A DNA stretch of 30,173 nucleotides from an uncultured Candidatus Saccharibacteria bacterium (GCA_964488325.1 CAZAUH010000001.1:14339-44511), one strand, 5' to 3'; shown: positions 13,960 through 29,619, counted from the first letter of the stretch. The notes: a model not told the origin generated them from the sequence alone. Translations and numbers: made by a program.

Positions 13960-14961
13960 ATGAAAAAAAGGATATTGAGTATAGATTTTTTAAGAGCTAC
14001 TGCTATCCTCTTTATGACTATTACCCATGTTAATGCAATACTCTACTTAGGCAATAATCCTATTCTAGATATATTTACAACTATTGGTGCTGCTATTAGT
14101 TTCTCAATTTTTCTATTCTCTTCTGCATATATTTCAGGTATTAAGATTCAAAAGGGTGAAAAGATTCCTATAATTAATACATTGAGAAGAGTACTAGAAA
14201 TATATATTGTTTATATTCTTCTTGGGGTATTAGTTTCAATTGTATTAGAGGGAGATATTACTTTAACAAAGATATTTGATATCGCATTGTTAAAACATAT
14301 TCCTGAATTTACTGAATTTCTAATATCATTTATCCTGTTCTCCTTTGTGTCTTTGATATTTCAAAAACAGATAAGGTATTTAATCAGCAAACCTTTCCTC
14401 TTTATTTTTATTACAATATTTATCTATATGTTAGGTGATTTTATATATGTTGTAATATCTAAACATACATATCCTGAAGTTATAAGGATAGTATTTGAAA
14501 ATATATTTGGATATCAATCACTTCATAGATTCCCATTGACTTACTATTTACCCCTATATACATTTGGAATACTTCTAAGTAAGTATAAAAAGGATAAGGT
14601 TTTAATATATACATTTATTACCTCTTTATTAATCTTTTTAATTCTATATTCCTTCAAACTCTCTTCCTGGAACAGGTGGCCTCCATCTATTATGTTTTTA
14701 TCATATGGTTTTCTATATATTCCTTTTGTATTACTAATTTATAGAAAATTTCAAAAAGCATTCTTTAACAAATTTCTTGTTTTCTTCACACGTATTGGCC
14801 GATACCCACTTGAGCAGCTCTTTCTTTCAACCTTTCTATTATTTACAATTAGAGCATTAATTCAACCAACTACCAATGAGATAGTGAGCATTTTAGTTAA
14901 TATTTTCATATTAACTACCTTGTCGCTTTACCCTATAGTATTTCGTCGTAAAATGGTATAA
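13960..14961 (+). CDS. Multi-TM acyltransferase-like protein (DUF1624/HGSNAT-catalytic/OpgC-like)
   Basis: N-terminal RILSIDFLRATAILFMTITH matches the R-x-x-S-I-D-x-x-R...M...H motif. About 9 TMs and a late RWPPS motif. Confidence 0.7.
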   Translation: MKKRILSIDFLRATAILFMTITHVNAILYLGNNPILDIFTTIGAAISFSIFLFSSAYISGIKIQKGEKIPIINTLRRVLEIYIVYILLGVLVSIVLEGDITLTKIFDIALLKHIPEFTEFLISFILFSFVSLIFQKQIRYLISKPFLFIFITIFIYMLGDFIYVVISKHTYPEVIRIVFENIFGYQSLHRFPLTYYLPLYTFGILLSKYKKDKVLIYTFITSLLIFLILYSFKLSSWNRWPPSIMFLSYGFLYIPFVLLIYRKFQKAFFNKFLVFFTRIGRYPLEQLFLSTFLLFTIRALIQPTTNEIVSILVNIFILTTLSLYPIVFRRKMV

Positions 14962-14962
14962 T
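14954..14962 (+). promoter_or_regulatory. Extended -10 promoter (TGGTATAAT), leaderless, overlapping the upstream stop codon
   Basis: TGnTATAAT 6 nt before the ATG at 14969. The TAA stop of the upstream gene (14959-14961) lies inside the hexamer. Confidence 0.68.
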
Positions 14963-14968
14963 TAAGGT

Positions 14969-16270
14969 ATGAATAAGAAATTAATAATATTGATTGGGCT
15001 ATTCCTTTTATTAATTGCCTCTTCACTATTAATTCCAAAACTTAATAACTCTCCAAACCCTCCATTATCTAATGACAACGAGGTAAAAGGAGATACAAAA
15101 GATATATGTCTTGAAACTCAAGGCTTGGCATCTGATATATTTCAATCTTTAGCAATTGAAAGAAAATGGTATGTTAAGTCTCCATACATAGAGAATAATA
15201 ATATTAAGTTTGAATTTGACTTACCAAAAGATAATGTCTCAGTATCATACTCCTTAAATGAAGAAACCTTTCCTGCACAATATATAGAAAATAAATGGAG
15301 TATTGATATCCCTATCGAGACTTTAGATTCTAATGAATATAAGCTAATAATTAAATCTGAAATTTGTGAAGCCAAAATCTCCAAATCCTTCTCTTTTAAG
15401 GTGTCAAATCCTGTGTATGTTGTATGGAGTATAGACTGGGAAGGATTTGATGTTAAAGATAAATATCTAGATGAGATGGCTAGAATTTCAAAACAGTATT
15501 CTGCTCCAATGACACATTTTTTTAATCCATATATATACATATACCTATCTTCTTCAAGAGCAAGCGATTTAACAAATTGGGTTAAAAGTAGAGATGGAGA
15601 AAGTATTGGTTTACATATCCATATGTATAACAAGTTAGTACAGGCTAGTGGAGTTACTGTTAATAATGATCCTGCTTGGGGAAGTCCTACAGGTAATGGT
15701 CATGATACTCCAAATAGTAACTATGGATATGATGATTATAAAAGGATTATTCAATGGTCATTACAACAATATGAGAAGAATGGATTAGAACAACCTACCA
15801 TGTATAGAGCAGGGGGATGGTATATAGATGAGGAAAATATTCTTGTATTAAAAAATCTTGGGTTTTATGTTGAATCATCTGGAAGAACATTCTATAAACA
15901 TGGAAGTAACCTTTTAGAGGGACCTTGGAATCTAAAAGAGAATACTCAGCCATATCAAATGAATAGTAAAGATCAAAATATTACAGACAATCCAGATATC
16001 AATATCTGGGAATATCCTAATAACGGGGGAGATTCATGGGCATTCTCTACTGAAAAATTAATCTCTAGATTTAAAGCTAACTATAATGGAGGAATTGCAA
16101 AAAGTAATACAGTAATAACTTTCATCTCCCATCCACATTGGTTTGATAAGGAAGGACCTAATATTGAAGGTGTATTAAAATATATCTCAAACAGTACATA
16201 TTCTTCTGATAACGGTCCTGTAATATTTATTACACTTGATAAAGTACACCAATATACTGTAAAACAGTAG
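14969..16270 (+). CDS. Membrane-anchored polysaccharide deacetylase-like (CE4/NodB-fold, WalW-like) protein
   Basis: N-terminal TM, then SIDWEG, GLHIH, YRAGGW and SHPHW metal/catalytic-type motifs. Confidence 0.72.
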   Translation: MNKKLIILIGLFLLLIASSLLIPKLNNSPNPPLSNDNEVKGDTKDICLETQGLASDIFQSLAIERKWYVKSPYIENNNIKFEFDLPKDNVSVSYSLNEETFPAQYIENKWSIDIPIETLDSNEYKLIIKSEICEAKISKSFSFKVSNPVYVVWSIDWEGFDVKDKYLDEMARISKQYSAPMTHFFNPYIYIYLSSSRASDLTNWVKSRDGESIGLHIHMYNKLVQASGVTVNNDPAWGSPTGNGHDTPNSNYGYDDYKRIIQWSLQQYEKNGLEQPTMYRAGGWYIDEENILVLKNLGFYVESSGRTFYKHGSNLLEGPWNLKENTQPYQMNSKDQNITDNPDINIWEYPNNGGDSWAFSTEKLISRFKANYNGGIAKSNTVITFISHPHWFDKEGPNIEGVLKYISNSTYSSDNGPVIFITLDKVHQYTVKQ

Positions 16271-16272
16271 TA

Positions 16273-18441
16273 ATGGAATTTGAAAATTGGGTTACTCAAG
16301 TTAGTGATAAACTTCCGAATTTTACAGTAAGAATCTTCTTACTAATATCTATCATTTTGTTGATACTAATATCTATTTTGTTCCTTGAGCTCTCAAAAAG
16401 AGAATATCGTTCTCTCCTTTTAAAGAAAATAATTGGAATACGCTATCTTCTACTGAGTTCCATTTCATTAATCATGGGTTTGGGAATGTACTTTCTTTAT
16501 GATTCACGTATTAAAGAAATCTTTGGAAACAACTTAATCTATATACTCTTTCCCTTTGGTTTCTGTTCAATCTTTTCTGCATGTAAATATATATTCGGGT
16601 TATTTAATAAAAGAAAGATACAGGGAATTCTTTCAAAAATGGAACTCCTTTTACTTTCTTTAATTTTTTTATCTCTCCTTCTCATTTCCCTATTTACAGT
16701 TCCTCATGTATCAGCCACGACCCAATCTAACTCCCAAATATTGGAAAATACTGAACAAGTAACTTTAAAATTCTCATCTCCATTAAAAACATCTGCTCTA
16801 ATAGTAACTGTTTCTCCAGAGAATCAGTTTGATTTTGAATATGACTACTTTTTAGGATTAAAGTCTTTTGTTGAAAGTATTACAATCATTCCAACAGAAT
16901 CATTCTTACCCAATCAAAAAATTGTTATCTACACAACAGGAATACAAAGAATTTTTCCTTGGGGTATTAATCATGAAAACAGCCAAGAGTTTTTTACACC
17001 TAAAGATCCTGATGTCCAAGAGGTTGTACTTGGTACAGATATTTCAAATGTTAATATTGAGCAACCTATTCTGATTGAATTAGATTCTAATGATCAGAAA
17101 TCAGTAGAGTGGACTGCAATATTCAAACCCGAGGCAGAGTACAAACTACTTAGAGAATTTGATAACACATTAACAATCCAACCTACAAAATTAAAACAGG
17201 GTACTGCATACGAATTAGAAATAATTAAAAGTATTATTATTTACAATCCAAAAACTTTAGAGAAAATATCTACACAGTCTCAAGAGAGTGTAAGAAATAT
17301 CTCATTTAAAACAACACCTGCTCCCGGCATAGAAAGTTATAATAGGAGTAATGGTATATATCCTAATAGTGAACCATTAAAAGTAAATTTTCAAGTTCCT
17401 TTAGACGAAGCTTCACTTAAAGATAGAGTACTCATTTCTCCAACAGTAGATGGTGATATCTCACTTTCAACTGATAAGAAGCAGTTGCTTTTTACTCCAA
17501 AGGGAAGTTTTGCAAAGAATACTGAATATACATTCACACTATTAAGTGGAATAGAAAATCTTCTAGGAGGATATACAGAGAGTGATATATCTATTACATT
17601 TAAAACTCCTGGATACGTTGCATTACTGTATTCTACTCCTAGAAATGGCTCTACTAGCTTATCTTTATCTACGCCTTCAATTTCACTTACATTTAACCAA
17701 CCTGTTAATCACAACAGTGTTCAAGAAAGATTTAGTATATCTCCAGCTGTGAATGGCACCTTCTCATGGAGTGGAAACACTCTTACGTATAGCTTTGCTA
17801 ATTCCCTATCATATGGAACCAAATATTCGGTTAGTATTGCTAAGGGTATAGTTGCTACATATGGAATAAACTCCGCATCAACTATTACCACTTCATTCTC
17901 AACAAAGCCTGAGACTGTTCAACTTAATGTTCCCCTCTACTATCAAACAGAATCATTTACATGTAATTTAGCTGCTACAAGAATGATACTAGCATATAAA
18001 GGGATTTCAAGTTCGGAGGGAAGTATAAGAGACTCAATTGGAATAGGACAAGACCCAAATTCAAGCTGGGTAAATAAATACGGAGTACATTGGGGACCAT
18101 TATCATCGTATATCTCAAGTAGGGGTATTAGTAACTCTTTAAAAAGAGGTTGGAATCTTACCTCTGCTTTACAAGAGATAAAAAATGGTCATCCAATCCT
18201 AATATATGTTTATAATGGAAGCTCTATTCCTAAAGGACCTATGGAATTAGAAGGAGGATATATAGGTTACAAAGGTATGCACTCTGCTGTAATTATCGGA
18301 TACTCAGGTACTCCTGAATCTCCTACAGCTGTCATTGTAAATGATCCATGGAGAGGTAAAAGAAATCTTACTCCAAGTACCTTTAAATATCTCTGGTACT
18401 ATTCTAGATACTTAAACAATACAGGAATAGTAATATATTGA
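16273..18441 (+). CDS. 4-TM protein with Ig-like (Big_5-type) repeats and a C-terminal C39-like cysteine peptidase
   Basis: Four N-terminal TMs; Ig-like starts LKFSSPL, VNFQVPLD and LTFNQPVN; C39-type VPLYYQ...TCNLAA (Cys), HSAVIIGY (His) and NDPW (Asp). Confidence 0.82.
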   Translation: MEFENWVTQVSDKLPNFTVRIFLLISIILLILISILFLELSKREYRSLLLKKIIGIRYLLLSSISLIMGLGMYFLYDSRIKEIFGNNLIYILFPFGFCSIFSACKYIFGLFNKRKIQGILSKMELLLLSLIFLSLLLISLFTVPHVSATTQSNSQILENTEQVTLKFSSPLKTSALIVTVSPENQFDFEYDYFLGLKSFVESITIIPTESFLPNQKIVIYTTGIQRIFPWGINHENSQEFFTPKDPDVQEVVLGTDISNVNIEQPILIELDSNDQKSVEWTAIFKPEAEYKLLREFDNTLTIQPTKLKQGTAYELEIIKSIIIYNPKTLEKISTQSQESVRNISFKTTPAPGIESYNRSNGIYPNSEPLKVNFQVPLDEASLKDRVLISPTVDGDISLSTDKKQLLFTPKGSFAKNTEYTFTLLSGIENLLGGYTESDISITFKTPGYVALLYSTPRNGSTSLSLSTPSISLTFNQPVNHNSVQERFSISPAVNGTFSWSGNTLTYSFANSLSYGTKYSVSIAKGIVATYGINSASTITTSFSTKPETVQLNVPLYYQTESFTCNLAATRMILAYKGISSSEGSIRDSIGIGQDPNSSWVNKYGVHWGPLSSYISSRGISNSLKRGWNLTSALQEIKNGHPILIYVYNGSSIPKGPMELEGGYIGYKGMHSAVIIGYSGTPESPTAVIVNDPWRGKRNLTPSTFKYLWYYSRYLNNTGIVIY

Positions 18442-18566: not shown

Positions 18567-18812
18567 CTAATCAACATCCTCAAATAAATCAGGATTCTCA
18601 TTACCACACTTTGGACATTTTTTAATCTCTTCTACACCCTCATATACATATCCACACTTTAAACATTTCCATCTAGTCCATGTAAGATCTAAATCTTCAG
18701 GATTATCTGGGTTCTCAATATACTCTTTAGGTAAATTAGGATCTATATGTGATGTTAAACCATTAGGTGTTACACTTGTATTTTGATTATCATTCTTTAG
18801 TGTATCCTCCAT
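18567..18812 (-). CDS. Small rubredoxin-like (CxxC...CPxC) metal-binding protein
   Basis: WKCLKCGYVYEG...KCPKCG. Overlaps the 3' end of cmk by 23 nt. Confidence 0.78.
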   Translation of the reverse strand: MEDTLKNDNQNTSVTPNGLTSHIDPNLPKEYIENPDNPEDLDLTWTRWKCLKCGYVYEGVEEIKKCPKCGNENPDLFEDVD

Positions 18813-19386
18813 CTTTAATCTTTTCTAAAATTAAATTAAAAGTATCTACCTCGTTCATATTAGAGGTATCTAAAACAATATTATAATACAACTCTGGTTT
18901 ATCATACCTCACCTTATACAATCTCCAATATTTCTCTTTATCAATCTTGTATCTTTTTTTTAATCTCCTCTTAATTTCAAAATACCTTTTTAATTTCTTT
19001 AAACCTTTAATATTCTCTTTATCTAAATGTCTTTTTATCTTAACATTCTGCTTAGCATCTAACCATATTGAAACATCACATTTAAGATTTTTTACTTTGG
19101 CCAAAGCTCCATATACCTTACTATCAATTACGACATCTCCCTTTTGTGCATACTGCTCTAACATACCATCTATCTCATAATCTAAACTGTTTCCACCCTT
19201 TGATATCTGTTGAAGAAATTCCTCGAAATATTCATAATCTTTCTCTTTTGCAGCTTTTCTAAAAAGATCTCCAGCATATATATGCTTAATATTAAAATGC
19301 TTAGCTAACATCTTTGAAATAGTGGTAATACCTGAACCACCTGGTCCTCCTACAGCTATTACAATCTTTTCATTTCTTTGAGTCAT
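18790..19386 (-). CDS. cmk: Cytidylate kinase, archaeal-type (AAA-family NMP kinase)
   Basis: IAVGGPGGSGITT P-loop, HIYAGDLFR, YEID and YNIVLDTS match the archaeal-type Cmk layout rather than E. coli-type Cmk. Confidence 0.78.
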   Translation of the reverse strand: MTQRNEKIVIAVGGPGGSGITTISKMLAKHFNIKHIYAGDLFRKAAKEKDYEYFEEFLQQISKGGNSLDYEIDGMLEQYAQKGDVVIDSKVYGALAKVKNLKCDVSIWLDAKQNVKIKRHLDKENIKGLKKLKRYFEIKRRLKKRYKIDKEKYWRLYKVRYDKPELYYNIVLDTSNMNEVDTFNLILEKIKDGGYTKE

Positions 19387-19418: not shown

Positions 19419-20606
19419 ATGTCGAGCAAAAGAAAGCAAAAAAGAAAGGCATCTAGTGAACATCATTCACCCGATAAATCTATACTAATATTTATGATTG
19501 GTATGGCAATCTTTGGTGCCATTATGATATATGATGCAAGTGTATATATTGCTAATCAACAACCATTTAACAACCAATTTCATTTTCTTACATTACAGAT
19601 TGCATGGTTAATATTTGGAGGAATATTAGCATTTGTTGCATATTTAGTAGACTATAGAAAAATATTAAAATTTTCATTTCCTATTCTACTCACTGTTGTT
19701 TTACTACTAATATTAGTTCTTGTACTTGGTCAAGAGGTAAATGGCTCAAAAAGATGGTTTCAAATAGGTGCACTTCCACCCATACAGCCTGCTGAATTTG
19801 CTAAACTTGCAGTAATTATGTATTTCTCAAGTTGGTTTTCAAATAAAGAGTATTCCTTTACTAAGTTTGAAGATTCATTTAAAAAGGGATTCTTAAAAAA
19901 TCTAATCCCCTTTCTAGCAATACTTGGAATAGTTGCATTACTTGTTCTCTTTGAACCTGATTTGGGAACTGCAATGATAATATGTGTAACCGCCTTTATT
20001 ATGTTTTTTGTCTCTGGAAAAGATAAGGCACATAGAATTGGTTCTTTTGCTATGATTCCTCTTGTTGCTCTTTTAGGAGTAATAGCTATCATATTAGAAC
20101 CTTACAGAATATCAAGAATTCAAACATACCTAAATCTAATATTTAAAGGAGAGGTAGCAGATGCACAGGGAAGTGGGTATCAGATGCAACAGATACTTAT
20201 TGGAATTGGGAGTGGAGGATTCTGGGGAAAGGGATTTGGGCAATCAAGACAGAGGTTTGGATACTTAGTTGAAAATACCGCATTTACTGATTCAACATTT
20301 GCAGTACTTTTAGAAGAGTTGGGATTATGGGGTGGGGGATTAATAGTTCTTTCTTGGATATTTTTTCTTTGGAGAGGATTTAAAATTGCACTTAACGCTA
20401 TAGATCAACAGGGACAGTATCTTGCAACAGGAATTACCGTATGGCTTTCATGTCAAGCATTCTTTAATATGGCAGCAAATGTTGGATTAATTCCACTAAC
20501 AGGAATTCCTCTACCCTTTCTAACATACGGGGGGTCTAGTACAATAGTAACAATGATAGCTTTTGGATTACTCTTAAATGTAAGTAAATATACAAAAAAT
20601 GCTTAA
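19419..20606 (+). CDS. ftsW: SEDS-family glycan polymerase FtsW
   Basis: GSKRWF, QPAEFAK, EPDLGT, GYQ, GSGG-GKG, TD (catalytic Asp) and PLTGIPLPFLTYGGSS. Directly upstream of murG. Confidence 0.93.
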   Translation: MSSKRKQKRKASSEHHSPDKSILIFMIGMAIFGAIMIYDASVYIANQQPFNNQFHFLTLQIAWLIFGGILAFVAYLVDYRKILKFSFPILLTVVLLLILVLVLGQEVNGSKRWFQIGALPPIQPAEFAKLAVIMYFSSWFSNKEYSFTKFEDSFKKGFLKNLIPFLAILGIVALLVLFEPDLGTAMIICVTAFIMFFVSGKDKAHRIGSFAMIPLVALLGVIAIILEPYRISRIQTYLNLIFKGEVADAQGSGYQMQQILIGIGSGGFWGKGFGQSRQRFGYLVENTAFTDSTFAVLLEELGLWGGGLIVLSWIFFLWRGFKIALNAIDQQGQYLATGITVWLSCQAFFNMAANVGLIPLTGIPLPFLTYGGSSTIVTMIAFGLLLNVSKYTKNA

Positions 20607-21777
20607 ATCAGAAATAAAGATAATGATAACAGGAGGAGGTAGTGGAGGACATATCTCTGTCGTAAAAAGTATAATTCATTCTTTAGTTGAAGATTACAAT
20701 ATACCAATTGAAAACTTAATATATGTTGGAGGGGATCTTGGTATGGAGGGAGAGCAGATTGGTAACTCTCTTGAACAAAGACAGTTTAAAGATAGTAAGT
20801 TTAAAAAATACTTTATTAGAGCAGGCAAACTACAAAGGAAAATATCTTTAAAAACAGTTTATTTACTCTTTAGATCTTTACTTGGGTTTTTTGACTCAAT
20901 GTCAATTGTTAAGAAAAGTAATCCAACATTGATTTTCTCCTCTGGTGGATTTGTATCAGTACCTGTATGTATAGCAGGATGGATGTTTCATAAACCTGTA
21001 TATTTACATGAACAGACAGCCTCTGTTGGTCTTTCAAATAGAATAGTTGGTAAGTTTGCAAAAAAGATATTTGTTACTTTTAATGATTCCCTTAAATATT
21101 TCCCGAAAGCAAAAACTGTTCATGTTGGTAATATTGTAAGAAAAGAGGTGTTTGAGAAAGAGATAACACAGCAAACAGATAAAGAGATAGTATCTCTAAT
21201 GGTAACAAACAAAAAACTTCCATTTGTATATATATCTGGTGGTAGTTTAGGTTCACACAATATTAATATAAAGGTTTTTGATTCCCTAAACTCTCTTTTA
21301 AGAAAATACAGGGTACTTCTTCAAACAGGGGATAATGAGATATACAAAGATTATGAAAAAGGAATTGATATAAAGAATAAATTAACAGGAGAGTATCAAG
21401 AAAGATTCGTTGTTAAGAAATATATTGATAGCAGTAGTATTGGATATGTCTTAAATAACATGGACCTCTTTTTAGGAAGAGCTGGTGCAAACACAGTATA
21501 TGAAATAGGGGTTTTAAAAAAGTTTGCCCTTTTAATACCAATACCCTGGGTTACACATAACGAACAGTATTTAAATGCTAAGGTTTTATCTGATATTGGT
21601 ACAGCAAATATTTTAGAAGAGAAATATTTAAATAATTGTGATCTTGATAATGAGATTGTTAGATTACAAAAACAGTTAGAGATAAGAGATATTAATTATG
21701 AAAAATTAGAGAAACTCTTTCCAACTAACGCTACTTTCAAGATATTAGATGACATGTTAGGGACATATCTAAAGTAG
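20599..21777 (+). CDS. murG: Lipid I GlcNAc transferase MurG
   Basis: GGGSGGH, GGFVS, HEQ, GGSLG, RAGA...E and EQYLNA motifs. Confidence 0.93.
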   Translation: MLKSEIKIMITGGGSGGHISVVKSIIHSLVEDYNIPIENLIYVGGDLGMEGEQIGNSLEQRQFKDSKFKKYFIRAGKLQRKISLKTVYLLFRSLLGFFDSMSIVKKSNPTLIFSSGGFVSVPVCIAGWMFHKPVYLHEQTASVGLSNRIVGKFAKKIFVTFNDSLKYFPKAKTVHVGNIVRKEVFEKEITQQTDKEIVSLMVTNKKLPFVYISGGSLGSHNINIKVFDSLNSLLRKYRVLLQTGDNEIYKDYEKGIDIKNKLTGEYQERFVVKKYIDSSSIGYVLNNMDLFLGRAGANTVYEIGVLKKFALLIPIPWVTHNEQYLNAKVLSDIGTANILEEKYLNNCDLDNEIVRLQKQLEIRDINYEKLEKLFPTNATFKILDDMLGTYLK

Positions 21778-21819
21778 CTCTACTACTGTTTATTTCCCAT
21801 CTGTTATATACTCTACCTA

Positions 21820-22842
21820 ATGAAAGTAGAAAAAAATGTATCACTTAAGAAATTAAATACTTTTAGAGTAGATGTATATACTGATATTTTACTTGCCATT
21901 GATAGTGATAATGATTTTTCAAATATAGAGGTAACGGGATATTTAAAAAATGACAACCTATTAATCTTGGGTGGAGGTTCTAATATACTCTTTACAAAAG
22001 ATTTTAAAGGTTGTGTTACCTTAATACGAAATATGGGGAAGGCCATATTAGAAGAGAGTGACCAATCTCTTACCGTACAGGTTAGTGCGGGTGAAAATTG
22101 GGATGATTTTGTAAAATGGAGTGTAAAAAAGAATTTAATTGGTCTACACAATCTTGCTTTAATACCAGGAACTGTTGGTGCTACCCCAATACAAAATGTA
22201 GGAGCATATGGAGTTGAAATCAAAGATTTTCTTACTGAGGTTGAGATTATTGATATTCAAAAAGGCAGAACTGAGATAATCAAAAACAGTGAGTGTAAAT
22301 TTGGATATAGAGATAGTATATTTAAAAATGAATTAAAAGATAAAGTCATTATTAAAAGTGTTACATTTAAACTACCTAAATATGCAGGAAAATTTGATGA
22401 TAAATATACCCAATATGCAGGTATTAAAGATGAACTAAAAGAAAAAGAACCCACTCCCAAAAACATATATGACTCTGTTGTAAGACTTCGAGAAAGCAAA
22501 TTACCTAAAATAGAAGAGTTCGGTTCCTGTGGAAGTACCTTTAAAAATCCAGAGATATCAATATCAGAGTACGACAGACTTTTAAAAACATTCCCGGAGT
22601 TACCTAAGTATGATACTGATAAAAAAGGAATTGTTAAAATACCAGCAGCATATATTTTGGAAAAGTTGGGATGGAAAAATAAAAGAAAGGGAGATGTTGG
22701 AACATGGATATATCATCCTTTAATTGTTACAAACTATGGAAATGCTACTGGTCAAGAGATCCTTTCCTTTATTAATGAAATCAAATCTGATTTTAAATCT
22801 AATACTAATTTAGATTTAGAGTGTGAAATTAATATTATTTAA
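21820..22842 (+). CDS. murB: UDP-N-acetylenolpyruvoylglucosamine reductase MurB
   Basis: GGGSN, IPGTVGA, QNVGAYG, GYRDS, GSTFKNP and C-terminal LECE. Confidence 0.96.
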   Translation: MKVEKNVSLKKLNTFRVDVYTDILLAIDSDNDFSNIEVTGYLKNDNLLILGGGSNILFTKDFKGCVTLIRNMGKAILEESDQSLTVQVSAGENWDDFVKWSVKKNLIGLHNLALIPGTVGATPIQNVGAYGVEIKDFLTEVEIIDIQKGRTEIIKNSECKFGYRDSIFKNELKDKVIIKSVTFKLPKYAGKFDDKYTQYAGIKDELKEKEPTPKNIYDSVVRLRESKLPKIEEFGSCGSTFKNPEISISEYDRLLKTFPELPKYDTDKKGIVKIPAAYILEKLGWKNKRKGDVGTWIYHPLIVTNYGNATGQEILSFINEIKSDFKSNTNLDLECEINII

Positions 22843-22851
22843 TACAATCAT

Positions 22852-24144
22852 ATGTCAAACCTAATCGTTAAAGGTGGGAATAAACTAAATGGAGAGATAA
22901 CTCCTGCGGGAAATAAAAACTCCGCTCTCCCAATACTGTGTGCATCTCTTCTTACAGATGAACCTGTATTAATTAAGAATTTCCCTGAATTAACTGATGT
23001 TGGTAAATTAATTGAATTAATGCAAGAGTTAGGTTCCAAGATAGAGTGGAACAAAGAAAAACAGGAAATAAAAATAGATAACTCTCATTTTTGTAAATCT
23101 TTTGGAGATAGTGGATTTCCACTAGGAATGAGAGGTGCTGTTTTACTACTTGCACCCTTACTTCATAGACACAAGGTATTAGAAGTTAAACAGGAGATTG
23201 GAGGATGTTCATTAGGAATAAGGGAGTTAGATCCTCATTTAGAGGTACTAACAGGATTAGGGGCAAACGTTAAATCAAATGATAAAATCACTATAGAGGC
23301 AAAAGATGGTCTAACTGGTAACACCCTATGGCAAGACTATATGTCTGTTACAACTACCGAAAACTTTGCTATGGCTGCTTCTTTAGCCAAGGGAACATCA
23401 ACCATGGTAAACGCTGCATCTGAACCCCATGTGCAAGACCTATGTAACTTTCTCATTCAAATGGGTGCAAAGATAGAGGGTATTGGTTCATCAACATTGA
23501 TTGTTCATGGCGTTGAGAAACTGCATGGTACACAATTTACAATCTCTTCTGATCATCATGAAATTACTACTTTACTTGCCCTTGGGGCAATGACTGGAGG
23601 TCAGGTTAGAGTTACCAACGCTATCCCTCAACATTTTCAATTGATAAATAAGACTTTTGCAAAATTTGGGGTAGAAATTAAATATGATGGTGATACTGCA
23701 TACTCTGTAAACAACGGAGTATTAAAAGTGGTTGAACCATTTACAAAAAATCTTTTACAAAAAGTAGAAGCAGCTCCATGGCCATACTTTCCCACAGATC
23801 TTTTACCATTAATAATGGCTTTAGCTGTAAAAGCAGATGGAAATACTATGTTTTGGAATAAACTGTATGAAGGAGGACTATTCTGGATACCTGAAATGAT
23901 TAAGTTCGGGGCACATATTGTAATGTGTGATCCTCATAGAGTAATTGTGTTTGGAGGAAAAGAGTTAAGTCCAGCGACTGTTGATGCTCCCAATATTATT
24001 AGAGCAACTGTCGCCCTATTAATGGTTGCGTTAACAATAGAGGGAGAGAGTGTAATTAATAACGCAGATACTATTAAAAGAGCACATCCTAATTTTGTAG
24101 AGAACTTACAAAAACTTGGTGCAGATATTAAATGGGTTGATTAG
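22852..24144 (+). CDS. murA: UDP-GlcNAc 1-carboxyvinyltransferase MurA
   Basis: GNKNSALP, GGCSLGIR (catalytic Cys retained), TEN and FPTD. Confidence 0.95.
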   Translation: MSNLIVKGGNKLNGEITPAGNKNSALPILCASLLTDEPVLIKNFPELTDVGKLIELMQELGSKIEWNKEKQEIKIDNSHFCKSFGDSGFPLGMRGAVLLLAPLLHRHKVLEVKQEIGGCSLGIRELDPHLEVLTGLGANVKSNDKITIEAKDGLTGNTLWQDYMSVTTTENFAMAASLAKGTSTMVNAASEPHVQDLCNFLIQMGAKIEGIGSSTLIVHGVEKLHGTQFTISSDHHEITTLLALGAMTGGQVRVTNAIPQHFQLINKTFAKFGVEIKYDGDTAYSVNNGVLKVVEPFTKNLLQKVEAAPWPYFPTDLLPLIMALAVKADGNTMFWNKLYEGGLFWIPEMIKFGAHIVMCDPHRVIVFGGKELSPATVDAPNIIRATVALLMVALTIEGESVINNADTIKRAHPNFVENLQKLGADIKWVD

Positions 24145-24334
24145 TTAGGTATAACAAAGAAAAATAAATATTCCTTTCTATTAAAGCATTACTTAAAAGC
24201 AGTTCATTCTTCCTATTAGGTATATATCAATATATCTTTAATCTTCCAATTTCCCTTTCTTAAAGGTAAATATATTCATAATAGATGACTTGTAGTAATA
24301 CACTCTTGACCATCATATTAATTTGGTATACATT

Positions 24335-24375
24335 AATGGCAAGAAGTGGTAAAAAGTGGTGAAAGATGATATATT
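24335..24375 (+). promoter_or_regulatory. MraZ operator direct repeats (10-bp period) abutting an extended -10 promoter
   Basis: AAGTGGT at 24344 and 24354, with degenerate copies on each side (TGG/TGG/TGG/TGA at 24337, 24347, 24357, 24367). TGATATATT at 24367-24375 is 6 nt before the mraZ ATG. Confidence 0.82.
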
Positions 24376-24381
24376 CTTTTT

Positions 24382-24819
24382 ATGATAATTGGAGAATATA
24401 GAAGTAAAGTAGGGGATAAAAAAAGAGTATCACTTCCTAAGAAATTTAGAGATGAATTAGGTGAAGAGATAATATTAACAAGGGGTTACGAAGACGCACT
24501 AATACTTGTTAATAAGGGAATGTGGGAAAAGATTGCGAAAGATGTTATAGGTGGCTCTTTTATAAATAAAAATGTTCGTGATACTAGCAGATTCCTAATA
24601 GGTAGTGCTATAGAGATATCAATAGATAAGCAGGGAAGATTTTTAATTCCAGATTCTCTTTTTGATCATGCAGGATTAAACAAAGATGTTGTATTTTTAG
24701 GTTTAATCAATTGGATAGAGGTATGGGATAGAGAGAAATGGGATAAGAGAGTCGAATATCTAAAAGCAAATGGAGATGAAATAGCAAATGAGATTAATAA
24801 GATGAAGGAGGAGAAATAG
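24382..24819 (+). CDS. mraZ: Transcriptional regulator MraZ
   Basis: GEYRSKVGDKKRVSLP, DKQGRFLIP and IEVWD motifs; heads the rsmH-ftsL-ftsI run. Confidence 0.95.
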   Translation: MIIGEYRSKVGDKKRVSLPKKFRDELGEEIILTRGYEDALILVNKGMWEKIAKDVIGGSFINKNVRDTSRFLIGSAIEISIDKQGRFLIPDSLFDHAGLNKDVVFLGLINWIEVWDREKWDKRVEYLKANGDEIANEINKMKEEK

Positions 24820-25707
24820 ATGGAAAAGATACACATACCTGTACTTTTAGATGAAGTCATTAGTTTCCTTGAAATTAAGCCTAATGGTTTTTACATTGAT
24901 TGCACACTAGGAGATGGGGGACACAGTTTTGAGATATATAAAAGATTGAGTAGCGATGGACTACTTCTTAGTATAGATCAAGATCAATATGCTATCGATT
25001 TTGTTCAAGAGTATTACAAAGATGTGATAAAGAAAAATTGGGTTATAAAAAAATCTAATTTTTCAAAGATTGCCTCTATTACATCCCAATACGAAAGACA
25101 ACCCGATGGGATATTAATGGATTTAGGTCTCTCATCTAGACAGTTAGAGGATTCACATAACAGAGGTTTTAGCTACTTAGAAGAGAGTGAACCATTAGAT
25201 ATGAGAATGGATGAGGAGTTAGGAGTAAAAGCTAAAGATATCCTAGTAGTCCTTTCAGAGAAAGATTTATCTACACTCTTTCTAAAATATGGAGAGGAAA
25301 AATATGCTAGAAAAATTGCTAAAGCTATTAAAGATGATATTACGAATATTATTACGGTTGGAGATCTTACAAGACTTGTCTATAGAGTTGTGCCGACAGC
25401 TCATCAAAATTCAAAGAACCCTTCACGCAGGGTCTTTCAGGCCCTGCGTATTGTGGTAAATGATGAACTAAACTCTTTGAAAGAGGGCTTAGACAAATCT
25501 TTTAAGCTCTTAAATCAAAAAGGAAGGATATGCGTAATATCTTTCCATTCGCTCGAAGATAGAATAGTTAAAGATTACTTTAACAGTTTAGTTGATAGCG
25601 GAGAGGGATTACTTCTTACCAAACAATTAAGTGCCCCAACCGACCAAGAGGTAAGAGACAATCCCAGATCCGCTTCAGCTAAATTAAGAGTATTAGAGAA
25701 AATATAA
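24820..25707 (+). CDS. rsmH: 16S rRNA m4C1402 methyltransferase RsmH
   Basis: HIPVL, DCTLGDGGHS, DLGLSS, PLDMRM, ISFHSLEDR and NPRSASAKLR. Confidence 0.97.
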   Translation: MEKIHIPVLLDEVISFLEIKPNGFYIDCTLGDGGHSFEIYKRLSSDGLLLSIDQDQYAIDFVQEYYKDVIKKNWVIKKSNFSKIASITSQYERQPDGILMDLGLSSRQLEDSHNRGFSYLEESEPLDMRMDEELGVKAKDILVVLSEKDLSTLFLKYGEEKYARKIAKAIKDDITNIITVGDLTRLVYRVVPTAHQNSKNPSRRVFQALRIVVNDELNSLKEGLDKSFKLLNQKGRICVISFHSLEDRIVKDYFNSLVDSGEGLLLTKQLSAPTDQEVRDNPRSASAKLRVLEKI

Positions 25708-25724
25708 CAGTAGTTTACTGCCCA

Positions 25725-26030
25725 ATGAAAACAACTGAAAAAATAAAAGGGTCCATATTTCCAAAGATATTAATCTTTTCATTTGTTCTCTTTACAGTAT
25801 CCCAATTAGTAGTTAATTCTGTTTTAACACCACTTGGTACTAGACTAGAATCTTTAAATACAGAAAAAGAACATCTTTTAGAGGAAAACAGGGTAGTATC
25901 CGAAGAGATAGCAAAAAACAGCTCTCTTAAAGTAATCGAAAGCCTTTCTGGAAAGAAGTTAAATCTTTCACAAACTAAAGTGCAAACATTTGTATATATT
26001 GAGGATTCTACATTAGTAGCTAATAACTAA
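25725..26030 (+). CDS. ftsL: Cell division protein FtsL-like
   Basis: Small bitopic protein with one TM and a coiled coil (LESLNTEKEHLLEEN), located between rsmH and ftsI. Its stop overlaps the ftsI start (TAATG). Confidence 0.7.
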   Translation: MKTTEKIKGSIFPKILIFSFVLFTVSQLVVNSVLTPLGTRLESLNTEKEHLLEENRVVSEEIAKNSSLKVIESLSGKKLNLSQTKVQTFVYIEDSTLVANN

Positions 26031-27874
26031 TGAGTAGGCTAAATCATCTACATTCTTCAAAACATAAGGGGAAAAAATCTTCTATTGGTGCTAAAATTCA
26101 AAAAAATAACTATAACTTTGTAATAGCCTTTTTGACAATATTAGGCCTTGTAGTTCTAATTCAAGCATTCCGTTGGCAAGTTTTAGAATCAGATAAATTT
26201 ATTGCTATTGCAAAACAACAGTATACCGATAAAGGGAAACAGACTGCTGAAAGGGGAATGATATACGCAAACGATGGAACAATTCTTGCAGTAGACCAAC
26301 CCATATGGAATGTATTTGCCTCTTTAAGTACAGATGAGAAAGAAAGAGAGCTCTTCTTTAGTAAAAAAGATCTTTTCATCTCAACAATATCCTCTATTCT
26401 TGCTGTAGAAAATGAGAGTATTGAAAGTAAAATAACTGACGACTTTCAATACGTTAACCTAGCGAAAGGTGTCGATACTGAAACAAAAATAGCAATTGAA
26501 AGTGCGAATATCTTTGGAAATGAAGATACCAATAGAGCTGGATTTGGTCTCTATTTTGAAAGAGCGTTAAAAAGGGTATATCCCAATGGAGAGCTTGCAT
26601 CTCATGTTTTGGGTTTCATTGGAAAAGATAGTGAAGGAAGCGATTTAGGACAGTATGGTATAGAAGGTTTTTACTTCGGAGATATTACCGGTAAGGAAGG
26701 ATACACATACGAAGAAAAGGATTCTTTAGGTAACACTATCTTAACAGCAGAATATGAACCTGTACTTCCTAGATCTGGTAAAGATTTTACACTTACTATT
26801 AAACCATCACTTCAAAACAAAGTAGAAAGGATATTAAAAGAGAATGTTGAAAAGACTAGTTCAAAAAGTGGAAGTGTGATAATAATGAATCCAAAAACAG
26901 GAGAGATTTTGTCTATTGCAAACTATCCCTCTTACAATCCTAATGAGTATTGGAGAATATCCGATCCATGGGTATTTAAGAATCTAGTAGTTGCTGATGT
27001 CTACGAATACGGTTCTGTTCAGAAACCAATTACCGTTTCAATTGCTCTTGAATCTGGTGATGTCCCTAAAGACTTCACATGCAATGACAAAACAGGATAC
27101 TTGGATCTATATGAAGCAACAGGATATGCAGATTTAAAGGGAAGAAAAATATATCAATGGGATAAAAGACCTGATGGTCTTCAAACATTAGCAGATATGT
27201 TAAAAAATTCTAATAACCCCTGTATAGCTAGAACTGCACTAGAGGTAGACTTTAAATACTTCTATAACAAGCTTAAAGAGTTTGGGATAGGTAGCTTTAT
27301 TGGAATAGGATTACAAGAGGAAAGTAATAGCTACTTAAAATCAGATGCACAGTGGACCAAGCTTGATACAATTACTGCATCCTATGGACAGGGTATATCT
27401 GCTACTCAACTTCAGGTAATCTCTGCTATTAGTACAATAGCAAACCATGGTAAAAGAATGAGACCATATATTATCTCCTCAATATCAGATGAAAAAGAAA
27501 AAATAAATTTTCAACCTCAGGTTCTTTCAGAACCAATTTCTTCTGAGACCGCAGATGCTGTAGCAGAGATGATGACACACGTTATTGAGGATGGAGGAAT
27601 TAATATTAAATACATTAAACAGTTAGAGGACTATTACATTGCAGGTAAAACAGGAACTTCCCAGGTTGCGAAAAAAGATGGTGTGGGATATGAAGAGGAT
27701 AAAACAATTACTACCTTTGTTGGTTTTGCTCCAGCTGATGATGCAAAGATGATAATGCTTGTAAGATTAGAAGAGCCAAAAAACAACCAGTATGCAGCAA
27801 ACACTGTAGTACCTATGTGGACTGAAATATTTCTAAATATTGTTAATGACCTAGAAATCTCAAAGAGAAATTGA
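26030..27874 (+). CDS. ftsI: Class B penicillin-binding protein (FtsI/PBP2-type transpeptidase)
   Basis: N-terminal TM, RGMIY and RVYP dimerisation-domain motifs, SxxK (SVQK), SxN (SNN) and KTG. Confidence 0.92.
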   Translation: MSRLNHLHSSKHKGKKSSIGAKIQKNNYNFVIAFLTILGLVVLIQAFRWQVLESDKFIAIAKQQYTDKGKQTAERGMIYANDGTILAVDQPIWNVFASLSTDEKERELFFSKKDLFISTISSILAVENESIESKITDDFQYVNLAKGVDTETKIAIESANIFGNEDTNRAGFGLYFERALKRVYPNGELASHVLGFIGKDSEGSDLGQYGIEGFYFGDITGKEGYTYEEKDSLGNTILTAEYEPVLPRSGKDFTLTIKPSLQNKVERILKENVEKTSSKSGSVIIMNPKTGEILSIANYPSYNPNEYWRISDPWVFKNLVVADVYEYGSVQKPITVSIALESGDVPKDFTCNDKTGYLDLYEATGYADLKGRKIYQWDKRPDGLQTLADMLKNSNNPCIARTALEVDFKYFYNKLKEFGIGSFIGIGLQEESNSYLKSDAQWTKLDTITASYGQGISATQLQVISAISTIANHGKRMRPYIISSISDEKEKINFQPQVLSEPISSETADAVAEMMTHVIEDGGINIKYIKQLEDYYIAGKTGTSQVAKKDGVGYEEDKTITTFVGFAPADDAKMIMLVRLEEPKNNQYAANTVVPMWTEIFLNIVNDLEISKRN

Positions 27875-27908
27875 GATAATTAGAGATAATAAATTCGTTA
27901 ATACTAAT

Positions 27909-28937
27909 ATGATTGAAATTCTAAAAGAGAGTCTCCAATATCTATTCATTTCTACACTAGCATCTGTACTTCTTGCACCAATCATGATTAGTATACTCTA
28001 CAAACTGAATCAGGTAAGTGGACTTAAGAAAACAGAACTTGGATCAAGAGAGGGAACCAATTCCATATTCATGAGAATTATGAAATCAACTCAAACAAAT
28101 GGTACACCAAATATGGGTGGCGTACTAATTTGGATTGTTGTTCCTTTAATAGCATATATATTTACCCCTATGTTTCCACAGTTAAGAGCTCTTCTAATTG
28201 GCTTTATGCTTTTTGGGTTTTGGGGCTTTGTAGATGTTGCAATATTTACAAATGGGTTTAAGAATAATCCTAAGATAAAGGCAATGCAAGAAACTTTTGA
28301 ATGGAGATTAGGTAAGCTCCTATTCACTATTCTTCTTAATATTATAATAATGTATCTTCTATATAGTACCGGTACTTTTACAACACTATCACTTACAAAT
28401 ACAATTGTACTTTCAATAACACCAGCAATACTTCTACTTATCGCAATAGTTAGTCAATTTGCAATCTATTCTGGAGAGCTAACTGATGGATTAGATGGTC
28501 TAATGGTAGGTATATTTATCATTATTATTTGTGCTATGTCTATGCTATTAATAGTACAACAGCAGTACGCCTTCTTACCATTTCTTGCAATTACATTAGG
28601 GGTATTAGTAGTTGATCTTTACTTTAATATTCCTCCAGCAAGATTTTGGAATGGGGGACCAGGTGCTATGCCTTTGGCCTTCTCTATCTTTTTTATTGGC
28701 TTAGTAACAAACAATATTCTTCCATATTTCCTAATGACCTCTGTTACATGGTTAATAATGGGATCAAGTGCAATACAGATATTAAGTATGAAATTCTTTA
28801 AGAAGAGGGTATTTAAGATAGCTCCAATACATCATCACTTCCAAGCAGTAGGATGGCCTCAGTACAAAATTACAATGAGGTTTTGGCTATTTACACTCTT
28901 TGCATGTATCTTAGGACTATTTGTAGGATTACTCTAA
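27909..28937 (+). CDS. mraY: MraY-family polyprenyl-phosphate sugar-phosphotransferase with atypical active site
   Basis: About 10 TMs, TPxMGG, TDGLDGL and APIHHHF, in the dcw position. The DD and MGD catalytic motifs are altered (see findings). Confidence 0.85.
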   Translation: MIEILKESLQYLFISTLASVLLAPIMISILYKLNQVSGLKKTELGSREGTNSIFMRIMKSTQTNGTPNMGGVLIWIVVPLIAYIFTPMFPQLRALLIGFMLFGFWGFVDVAIFTNGFKNNPKIKAMQETFEWRLGKLLFTILLNIIIMYLLYSTGTFTTLSLTNTIVLSITPAILLLIAIVSQFAIYSGELTDGLDGLMVGIFIIIICAMSMLLIVQQQYAFLPFLAITLGVLVVDLYFNIPPARFWNGGPGAMPLAFSIFFIGLVTNNILPYFLMTSVTWLIMGSSAIQILSMKFFKKRVFKIAPIHHHFQAVGWPQYKITMRFWLFTLFACILGLFVGLL

Positions 28938-28941
28938 CAGG

Positions 28942-29619
28942 TTACTCCTTCACACAACTACTTTCTCCATTCTTACATTGACATAGTAAGTTACCATCTT
29001 TTGAGTTATATACATCTCCATCATTTCGAATATATCCCTCATATATACAGTTATTAGATAGATAAATAGAATCATATTCATCTTGATACTGTACTCTAAA
29101 TGTATCATCTACATTCATGTTAAAGTTATTAATAAGAAATGTGTTTTCAGAAACACATGGCATATTAAATGACTCATTTGTTAAATTACTTACTACTGTA
29201 AGTATTAATTTCTCTTCATTTAATTTATAGAAACCTATTTGTGGAGCAACTATACTATCCTCATTACACATACTTTCGATTTCAAGTGTAATCTTCAAAT
29301 TGTTATTAAAATTTGAAATATCAACAAACTTAGCTTTTTGATTAATTGGGTTATTAATATCTATAAGATTAAGAAAATCAAATGAATATACTAAATCTAC
29401 GGATGTAAACTCACTTGAACCAACTGTAATTGTAATATCTTCATCACAAACCTTTTCTCCCTCACTATTACATATACAGTTTGTTCCTAAATCATCTCCA
29501 AATGCACACTGTTTAATTCCTATCGTATCTTTTAAAGATATAACGAAAATTCCCAGTGAGGAAAAAAATAGGAACAACGTAATTATTACCAACCAATTGG
29601 CATACAACCGACCTTTCAT
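28942..29619 (-). CDS. Single-TM exported protein with two small Cys-rich modules
   Basis: N-terminal TM; CAFGDDLGTNCICNSEGEKVC and CIYEG...DGNLLCQCKNGESSC; TGATACAAT lies 9 nt upstream of the ATG. Confidence 0.75.
   Translation of the reverse strand: MKGRLYANWLVIITLFLFFSSLGIFVISLKDTIGIKQCAFGDDLGTNCICNSEGEKVCDEDITITVGSSEFTSVDLVYSFDFLNLIDINNPINQKAKFVDISNFNNNLKITLEIESMCNEDSIVAPQIGFYKLNEEKLILTVVSNLTNESFNMPCVSENTFLINNFNMNVDDTFRVQYQDEYDSIYLSNNCIYEGYIRNDGDVYNSKDGNLLCQCKNGESSCVKE

Follow-up and report, generated by a model that had tools for sequence, protein, structure and literature searches.

The Mur ligases MurC, MurD, MurE and MurF are considered indispensable for making peptidoglycan and have long served as targets of antibiotics. 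In the canonical division and cell wall (dcw) cluster, as in Escherichia coli and Bacillus subtilis, their genes are interleaved with the other wall genes in the order mraZ-rsmH-ftsL-ftsI-murE-murF-mraY-murD-ftsW-murG-murC-ddl. Here we describe a dcw-like cluster without any of these ligase genes, located at positions 19419 to 28937 of a 30,173-nucleotide stretch of DNA (hereafter the window; G000:C1:14339-44511). The window is part of a 646-kb assembly of 90 contigs that is 74.6% complete. Judged by 80 related loci, which all belong to Candidatus Dojkabacteria (WS6) within the Patescibacteria or candidate phyla radiation (CPR), its lineage is Dojkabacteria. This organism lacks the Mur ligase superfamily altogether, having neither MurC, MurD, MurE or MurF nor the recycling enzyme Mpl, and the window shows the last stage of a truncation that the cytoplasmic stem-peptide pathway has undergone repeatedly in this family.

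Several systems in which part of the peptidoglycan pathway is salvaged, shared or lost invite comparison. The closest functional analogue is recycling by Mpl, the UDP-MurNAc:tripeptide ligase of Gram-negative bacteria, which resembles the logic proposed below in that self-made uridine diphosphate N-acetylmuramic acid (UDP-MurNAc) is combined with a scavenged, ready-made peptide; in Dojkabacteria with MurF as their only ligase, MurF would complete the product. Mpl itself, however, belongs to the Mur ligase family, of which the window's genome has no member. In the mealybug symbiont Moranella, peptidoglycan synthesis is reportedly a mosaic with host-encoded steps. The likeness lies in a reduced bacterium that lacks some precursor steps, with a partner completing the wall, but in Moranella the missing steps come from genes transferred to the host nucleus, whereas in Dojkabacteria four ligases are gone, and recurrently so within one family. 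Likewise, Tannerella forsythia, a MurNAc auxotroph without MurA and MurB, salvages MurNAc via AmgK and MurU and thus takes a wall building block from other bacteria. It is nevertheless a mirror image: it has lost the sugar steps and kept the ligases, and Dojkabacteria have done the reverse. Lastly, obligate intracellular bacteria, too, are streamlined organisms that keep a part of the pathway. Typically, they keep MurA to MurF, MraY and MurG and lose the polymerases. This is the opposite pattern, as Dojkabacteria lose the ligases and keep polymerase and transpeptidase. The reduced peptidoglycan gene sets of obligate intracellular bacteria are the subject of one published account (PMC5814848). 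Our finding is another case of reductive evolution of the peptidoglycan pathway, and a full-text literature search found no description of the ligase-free state in Dojkabacteria.

Compared with the canonical system, MurA, MurB, MurG, FtsW, FtsI, MraZ, RsmH and MurJ belong to the same families, and the hallmark of a dcw cluster, an mraZ-rsmH-ftsL-ftsI block in the same order accompanied by wall-synthesis genes on one strand, is present in the window. The window differs in that ftsW-murG-murB-murA comes first and the mraZ block second, that murA and murB lie inside the cluster, that MraY is a divergent paralogue and that the interleaved murE, murF, murD and murC are missing; even the corresponding cluster of its relatives has only murF, on the opposite strand. 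An open reading frame (ORF) listing combined with Pfam and NCBIfam profile scans of the window gave the following features:

18790..19386, minus strand: cmk-like nucleotide kinase, divergent left border (PF02224/PF13207 matches)
19419..20606, plus strand: ftsW, glycan polymerase of the shape, elongation, division and sporulation (SEDS) family (PF01098, 295 bits; TIGR02614, 311 bits)
20599..21777, plus strand: murG, GT28 glycosyltransferase converting lipid I to lipid II (PF03033 and PF04101; TIGR01133, 179 bits)
21820..22842, plus strand: murB, UDP-N-acetylenolpyruvoylglucosamine reductase of the E. coli-like type (NF000755, 353 bits, cut-off 277)
22852..24144, plus strand: murA, enolpyruvyl transferase acting on UDP-N-acetylglucosamine (UDP-GlcNAc) (NF006873, 393 bits, cut-off 297)
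24145..24381: intergenic gap of 237 bp, the former murF-mraZ divergent promoter region
24382..24819, plus strand: mraZ (TIGR00242, 109.5 bits, cut-off 98)
24820..25707, plus strand: rsmH (mraW), 16S rRNA methyltransferase (TIGR00006, 297 bits; exceeds the NCBIfam cut-off)
25725..26030, plus strand: FtsL-like ORF of 101 residues, named by position and size only
26030..27874, plus strand: ftsI, class B penicillin-binding protein (PBP) and D,D-transpeptidase (PF03717 and PF00905, 219 bits)
27909..28937, plus strand: mraY paralogue of type B, homologue of polyprenyl-phosphate phospho-sugar transferases with two catalytic Asp positions replaced (TIGR00445, 110 bits against a cut-off of 192)
28942..29619, minus strand: conserved ORF of 225 residues, convergent right border

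The FtsL-sized ORF and the 225-residue ORF had no match in the Pfam and NCBIfam scans; both recur in nearly all related loci, the former between rsmH and ftsI and the latter at the same border position, and cmk occupies an identical position in about 45 Dojkabacteria loci. The same scans detected no Mur ligase and no Ddl in the cluster. An earlier note, written from the sequence of this stretch, had read the order as ftsW-murG-murB-murA, a 237-bp gap and mraZ-rsmH-ftsL-ftsI-mraY, bounded by a divergent cmk and a convergent gene and devoid of stem-peptide ligases, and had mentioned reports of incomplete peptidoglycan pathways in some CPR lineages, Dojkabacteria/WS6 among them. Our gene calls agree with the order, the borders (18790-19386 and 28942-29619, both on the minus strand) and the lack of ligases, and Dojkabacteria/WS6 turned out to be the lineage of the window itself. 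What we have to revise is the view that the order is permuted. The arrangement in the window, cmk(-) ftsW murG murB murA, gap, mraZ rsmH ftsL ftsI mraY-like orf225(-), is conserved across the related loci as cmk(-) ftsW murG murB murA [murF(-)] mraZ rsmH ftsL ftsI mraY-like orf225(-), and is therefore the ancestral Dojkabacteria arrangement, not a peculiarity of this genome.

The comparison with related loci also indicates what was lost from the cluster. In relatives, a ligase gene lies between murA and mraZ on the opposite strand; its product is MurF (TIGR01143, 316-323 bits with a cut-off of 288.6), with the Mpl profile scoring only 51 bits. This slot is filled in about 35 informative loci and empty in about 24, the window being among the latter. 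In congeners that carry murF, an intergenic region of 198-231 bp separates it from mraZ, and the gap in the window aligns with this region over its full length; both have a TTGACC...TACATT block and GTGGTAAAAAGTGGT boxes a short way upstream of mraZ. A pseudogene relic of murF was sought in the 237 bp and not found; the gap is the old intergenic region. Since the homology covers this whole region, precisely murF has been removed, and the window cluster is the ancestral Dojkabacteria cluster after a clean murF deletion. The murA-gap-mraZ junction is no assembly artefact, because contigs of independent metagenomes from other studies span it (X6 record 28, 23699-24489; X5 record 21, 24033-24497). 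Within the gap, the block upstream of mraZ (window ~24290-24375) consists of CTTGTAGTAATACACTCTTGACC, a spacer of about 17 nt and TACATTAATGGCAAGAAGTGGTAAAAAGTGGT, and is common to several genera. It resembles a promoter with repeated GTGG boxes, which are possibly MraZ operators.

Beyond the cluster, a search of the whole 646-kb assembly with the Mur ligase middle-domain profile (PF08245, Mur_ligase_M) returned no match, while the same profile, used as a control, was positive for 12-13 of 14 reference genomes and, within the window's family, for 69 of 100 species. MurC, MurD, MurE and MurF sequences of relatives at the order, family and genus level gave a best E-value of 0.08 in tblastn searches against the window's genome, and the Mur-type P-loop motif G[TS]xGK[TS][TS] does not occur in any of its reading frames. 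Mpl (TIGR01081) is absent as well, since the genome encodes no Mur_ligase_M protein. Since this genome is incomplete, the case for a genome-wide absence is strongest in relatives that share its cluster, namely the closed genomes G015 and G080 and the nearly complete genomes G001 (97%) and G004 (98%), none of which encodes a Mur ligase. Furthermore, MurC, MurD, MurE, MurF and the alanine racemase Alr of G100, a closed genome with a full ligase set, have no tblastn match in closed G015 or in the window's genome. Together, the profile, tblastn and P-loop searches and the closed relatives rule out that the ligases were relocated elsewhere in the genome. The earlier note had made its argument depend on a genome-wide absence and had named intact murC, murD, murE, murF and ddl genes elsewhere as the finding that would make this a simple rearrangement; when checked for murC, murD, murE and murF, neither the 74.6% of the genome at hand nor the closed relatives contained any. 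A Ddl was likewise not found in the window's genome, which yielded only a weak ATP-grasp match.

The window's genome is far from alone in this state. Our family sample comprises 100 species, all of them metagenome-assembled genomes, of which 62 have a completeness of 90% or more and a contamination of 5% or less. Per genome, 31 species encode no ligase, 35 encode one, 13 encode two, 4 encode three and 18 encode four or five. Among the 62 high-quality genomes, 17 are ligase-free, and the ligase-free species include G015 and G080, each assembled into a single contig. The single ligase is the cluster MurF, as judged by its position beside the MraY homologue; in 12 of the 13 species with two ligases, these are MurE and MurF; and species with a full set have, in addition, murD, murC and murE as an operon at a second locus. 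The ligase states are therefore nested (CDEF, EF, F only, none), and truncation runs from the top down, with the murD-murC-murE operon lost first and murF last. One apparent deviation, a 5.9-kb contig with MurD and a canonical MraY in G008 (C41, L057), was set aside as probable contamination; the bin is 8% contaminated, and its own cluster lacks murF. As a separate observation, six clusters (L096, L106, L109, L131, L134 and L136) had neither murA nor murB in a search confined to the cluster, leaving ftsW-murG-murF-mraZ or ftsW-murG-mraZ.

The ligases were lost many times. On a tree of RsmH, FtsI and the MraY-like protein from 66 species, the ligase count must have switched between zero and non-zero at least 7 times, and among the full, partial and zero states at least 16 times. 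Under a loss-only model with weakly supported branches collapsed, the ligases must have vanished completely no fewer than 11 times; if only genomes that are at least 90% complete are used, the minimum is 9. Some events are recent. For instance, the sister species G093 (full set) and G091 (MurF only) are separated by a synonymous divergence (dS) of ~0.15-0.3, and the 4.4-kb murDCE operon of the former is replaced by ~208 bp in the syntenic contig of the latter. G089 and G104, each the sister of a full-set species (G100 and G099, respectively), lack the same interval; in the syntenic contigs of these three species only 100-1260 bp are left. With such recurrent and recent losses, the Mur ligase genes thus behave as dispensable accessory genes.

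Despite these losses, the remaining wall genes are well maintained. More than 20 ligase-free species have kept the full complement of nine cluster genes intact, and murA, murB, murG, ftsW, ftsI and the mraY-like gene are under strong purifying selection in ligase-free lineages. Between the window's genome and its closest relative G005, both ligase-free and separated by a dS of 0.3-0.6, the ratio of non-synonymous to synonymous substitution rates (dN/dS) is 0.028 for murA, 0.031 for ftsI, 0.033 for the mraY-like gene, 0.067 for ftsW, 0.106 for murG and 0.209 for murB; for the FtsL-like ORF, it is 0.023. MurA and MurB both exceed their NCBIfam cut-offs and are apparently functional, and MurA retains its catalytic cysteine in EIGGCSLGIR. 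In FtsI, the transpeptidase motifs are S329-V-Q-K, S394-N-N and K540-T-G, and SxxK, SxN and KTG are invariant in 70 of 70 species whatever their ligase count, including 22 ligase-free ones from several genera. The machinery for lipid II flipping, polymerization and cross-linking is present in the window's genome: it has MurJ on contig C62 (215 bits), MurG, the SEDS polymerase FtsW and, as class B PBP, an FtsI that bears SxxK, SxN and KTG.

Ligase-free genomes, closed ones and the window's included, also encode one YkuD L,D-transpeptidase (with SGGCIR in the window's copy) and two to four sortases with TLxTC. A Ddl is encoded by 32 of the 100 species, at least 7 of them ligase-free and G005 among these, and canonical-looking Ddl (226-257 bits) is confined to ligase-free species (G005, G001, G081, G049 and G051), where it sits in a native, syntenic chromosomal context. 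Its dN/dS between two ligase-free species is 0.068. In ligase-free G001 (C12; L058 334-3504), Ddl is flanked by Alr and an M14 carboxypeptidase, and an Asp/Glu racemase is present in several ligase-free species. MurF, where it is the only ligase, is itself selected, with a dN/dS of 0.043 between two MurF-only species. On the supply side, GlmU was not found even in the closed genomes G015, G080 and G100, the last of which has only a weak nucleotidyltransferase match; the cell may therefore import the UDP-GlcNAc that MurA and MurG use as substrate, or produce it in some other way.

The murB gene has a history of its own. Congeners carry two very different versions in the same slot (window 21820-22842; L055 of G004, L038 of G009, L150 of G080) that share 37-40% identity, as against 67-86% among other congeners and 72-85% for the flanking genes, which suggests that murB was replaced in place. 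In the G100 lineage, it was relocated outside the cluster and stands beside alr (G100:C1:420702-421775).

The MraY homologue of the window is unusual. It carries the motifs GFVDV, ARFWNGGPG and HHH, scores 110 bits against the 192 demanded by the MraY profile, and has Val in place of the second Asp of the DD pair and Gly in place of the Asp of MGD, with HHH kept. Two MraY paralogues exist in Dojkabacteria: a canonical type A with DD, MGD and HHH, and a type B with DV, NGG and HHH. Both stand in one cluster in some other families of the order (G035 = L016, G031 = L014; L011 of G040 is a related locus). Type B is found in 94 of the 100 species of the window's family, where it is the sole MraY homologue, in the form GFxDV, ARFWNGGPG and HHH, of members with or without ligases. 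Because it is the only one even in the full-set genomes checked (G017, G022, G023 and the closed G100), type B probably works like MraY, despite lacking two of the three essential MraY aspartates. The same form in full-set relatives also means that the substitutions predate ligase loss and do not track it, and we therefore reject them as its correlate. On this point we depart from the earlier note, which had seen a fit between the altered MraY and the missing ligases.

How, then, can a wall be made without ligases? We tentatively favour, at somewhat less than even confidence, the reading that stem peptides still exist and reach self-made UDP-MurNAc by a route that does not involve Mur enzymes. 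The wall would still carry stem peptides; the peptide or its parts would be obtained ready-made from a host or the surroundings, or be built from amino acids; and an enzyme outside the Mur ligase family would join the peptide to UDP-MurNAc made by the cell. With such a route available, the Mur ligases would become dispensable and could be lost repeatedly. Two arguments lead us here. Three kinds of enzyme that depend on peptides persist, namely a D,D-transpeptidase, an L,D-transpeptidase and sortases, as does D-Ala-D-Ala synthesis in organisms that lack MurF, and we therefore argue that the wall is still peptide-bearing. Strong selection on MurA and MurB, in turn, argues that UDP-MurNAc is made and used, which speaks against a simple import of UDP-MurNAc-pentapeptide. 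The nested losses, together with a selected MurF in MurF-only species, suggest entry at later steps of the pathway.

A more specific version, which we consider possible but doubtful, is that an undescribed non-Mur enzyme system serves as a non-orthologous replacement of MurC to MurF, either assembling the stem peptide on UDP-MurNAc or adding one that is ready-made. If true, it would explain at least 9-11 ligase losses in one family as well as the selection on D-Ala-D-Ala synthesis, transpeptidases and sortases.

A number of points weigh against a peptide-bearing wall supplied by a non-Mur route. To our knowledge, no non-Mur enzyme attaches amino acids or peptides to UDP-MurNAc, and no replacement for MurC to MurF was identified among the candidates we examined. 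One of these, a pair of adjacent genes for ATP-grasp proteins of 565 and 288 residues (G000:C12:8913-11408; L001 634-3204), RimK- or cyanophycin-synthetase-like and accompanied by a conserved 210-residue ORF, occurs in all five families of the order irrespective of ligase content. The same objection applies to an operon of four genes (~297, 324, 332 and 453 residues, no Pfam match; G000:C56:154-3328, G015:C1:482661-486826, L143 10831-15446), which in G049, G051 and G081 adjoins a divergently transcribed ddl: 82 of the 100 species have it, full-set ones included, one subclade of genus g35 does not, and it thus is no specific replacement. The nested order of loss may partly mirror gene arrangement, as murDCE form one operon and murF lies inside a strongly selected cluster. 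Ddl and the racemases are patchy and missing from many full-set species, too: Ddl was not detected, for example, in G017, G022, G099 and G108, nor a Glu racemase in G100, G077 and G093. Even a 'complete' MurC-F pathway in this family seems to require D-amino acids or dipeptides supplied from outside. As for sortases, YkuD and PBPs, their substrates could in principle be proteins or the wall material of a host instead. Finally, all data are genes from metagenome-assembled genomes, and no RNA runs carrying the window sequence were found. The organism itself is present in samples of the bioreactor or wastewater type.

Other candidates were also discarded. A comparison of gene content for genes present in both ligase-free G015 and the window's genome and absent from full-set G100 left 42; those with an annotation are an M16 peptidase, YdjM, a TPR protein, an SPFH protein, a zinc peptidase, a HIT protein and a dehydrogenase fragment, the rest are unknowns, and none is ligase-like. 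A 467-residue unknown protein turned out to be methyltransferase-like. Amidase_3 was uninformative, being absent from 5 of 5 genomes tested, one of them with a full set.

Of the alternatives, the one that survives best, albeit as an unlikely one, is a peptide-free or differently substituted glycan, in which the MraY-like protein would transfer phospho-MurNAc devoid of peptide, MurG, MurJ and FtsW would build a bare MurNAc-GlcNAc polymer, and FtsI would be only the partner and activator of FtsW. In its favour are the strong selection on MurA and MurB when no known consumer of UDP-MurNAc remains, the loss of two of the three canonical catalytic aspartates from the MraY-like protein, and an acyltransferase-3 gene and other envelope genes just upstream. 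However, the same MraY form serves ligase-complete relatives, the transpeptidase motifs are invariant with an ftsI dN/dS of 0.03 in ligase-free lineages, and the YkuD L,D-transpeptidase and the sortases have been retained, as has a Ddl under selection; nor would one expect nested loss and a selected MurF in MurF-only species if peptides had simply been abandoned. A peptide-free polymer was one of two proposals of the earlier note, and the retained FtsI site, YkuD, sortases, Ddl, Alr and Asp/Glu racemase make it the less likely outcome.

The second proposal, scavenging of precursors, is in its strict form the import of a finished UDP-MurNAc-pentapeptide or lipid-linked intermediate from a bacterial host, with entry at the MraY step and no ligation. 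CPR bacteria live as episymbionts, top-down loss is typical of salvage, the membrane steps are always kept, and the failure to find GlmU even in closed genomes means that UDP-sugars may already be imported. Yet this scenario does not account for why MurA and MurB are strongly selected, nor for the selection on Ddl in ligase-free species and on MurF in MurF-only species; moreover, no nucleotide-sugar importer was identified. We hold it to be quite improbable.

Less credible still, and very unlikely in our view, is a pathway in decay, whose retained genes would be relics or serve division only or another role, with no peptidoglycan-like polymer made. The precursor genes are indeed patchy across the family (ligases, Ddl, racemases, GlmU), and some clusters also lack murA and murB (L096, L106, L109, L134, L136), but nine intact cluster genes in more than 20 ligase-free species at dN/dS values of 0.02-0.2, intact catalytic residues in MurA and FtsI and a retained MurJ are hard to reconcile with decay. 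Finally, that the ligases were merely missed, as too divergent, unbinned or lost in assembly gaps, is hardly conceivable even with a window genome in 90 contigs at 74.6% completeness and with metagenome-assembled genomes throughout, as the single-contig G015 and G080 have none, the deletions lie inside contiguous syntenic DNA, the same junction recurs in independent samples, the control search was positive for 12-13 of 14 reference genomes and, in the family, for 69 of 100 species, and the window's genome is devoid of the Mur-type P-loop motif in every frame.

About a third of the family thus lacks every Mur ligase. Still in place are the enzymes for the sugar precursors, the machinery of lipid II, transpeptidases of two kinds, sortases and, in some of these species, D-Ala-D-Ala synthesis, with strong purifying selection on those genes that were tested for it. 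This constitutes a natural experiment, which points either to a new route by which stem peptides reach MurNAc or to an undescribed wall chemistry for transpeptidases and polymerases. The many independent and recent losses provide closely related pairs for comparison, some of them sister species that differ only by the murDCE operon. They also imply that a peptidoglycan pathway called present from markers such as MurA, MraY and FtsI can hide a missing middle.

Two groups of genes near the cluster deserve mention. Upstream of cmk, window positions 13960-18441 hold three co-oriented envelope genes, encoding a protein with a weak Acyl_transf_3 match, an unknown protein of 433 residues and a 722-residue protein with Big_5 and Peptidase_C39_2 domains; the trio is unlinked to ligase status, and parts of it occur in some relatives. 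Further upstream lie a subtilase (Peptidase_S8, 6221-7981) and an SBP_bac_5 oligopeptide-binding protein (9849-11627), which may be relevant to peptide scavenging.

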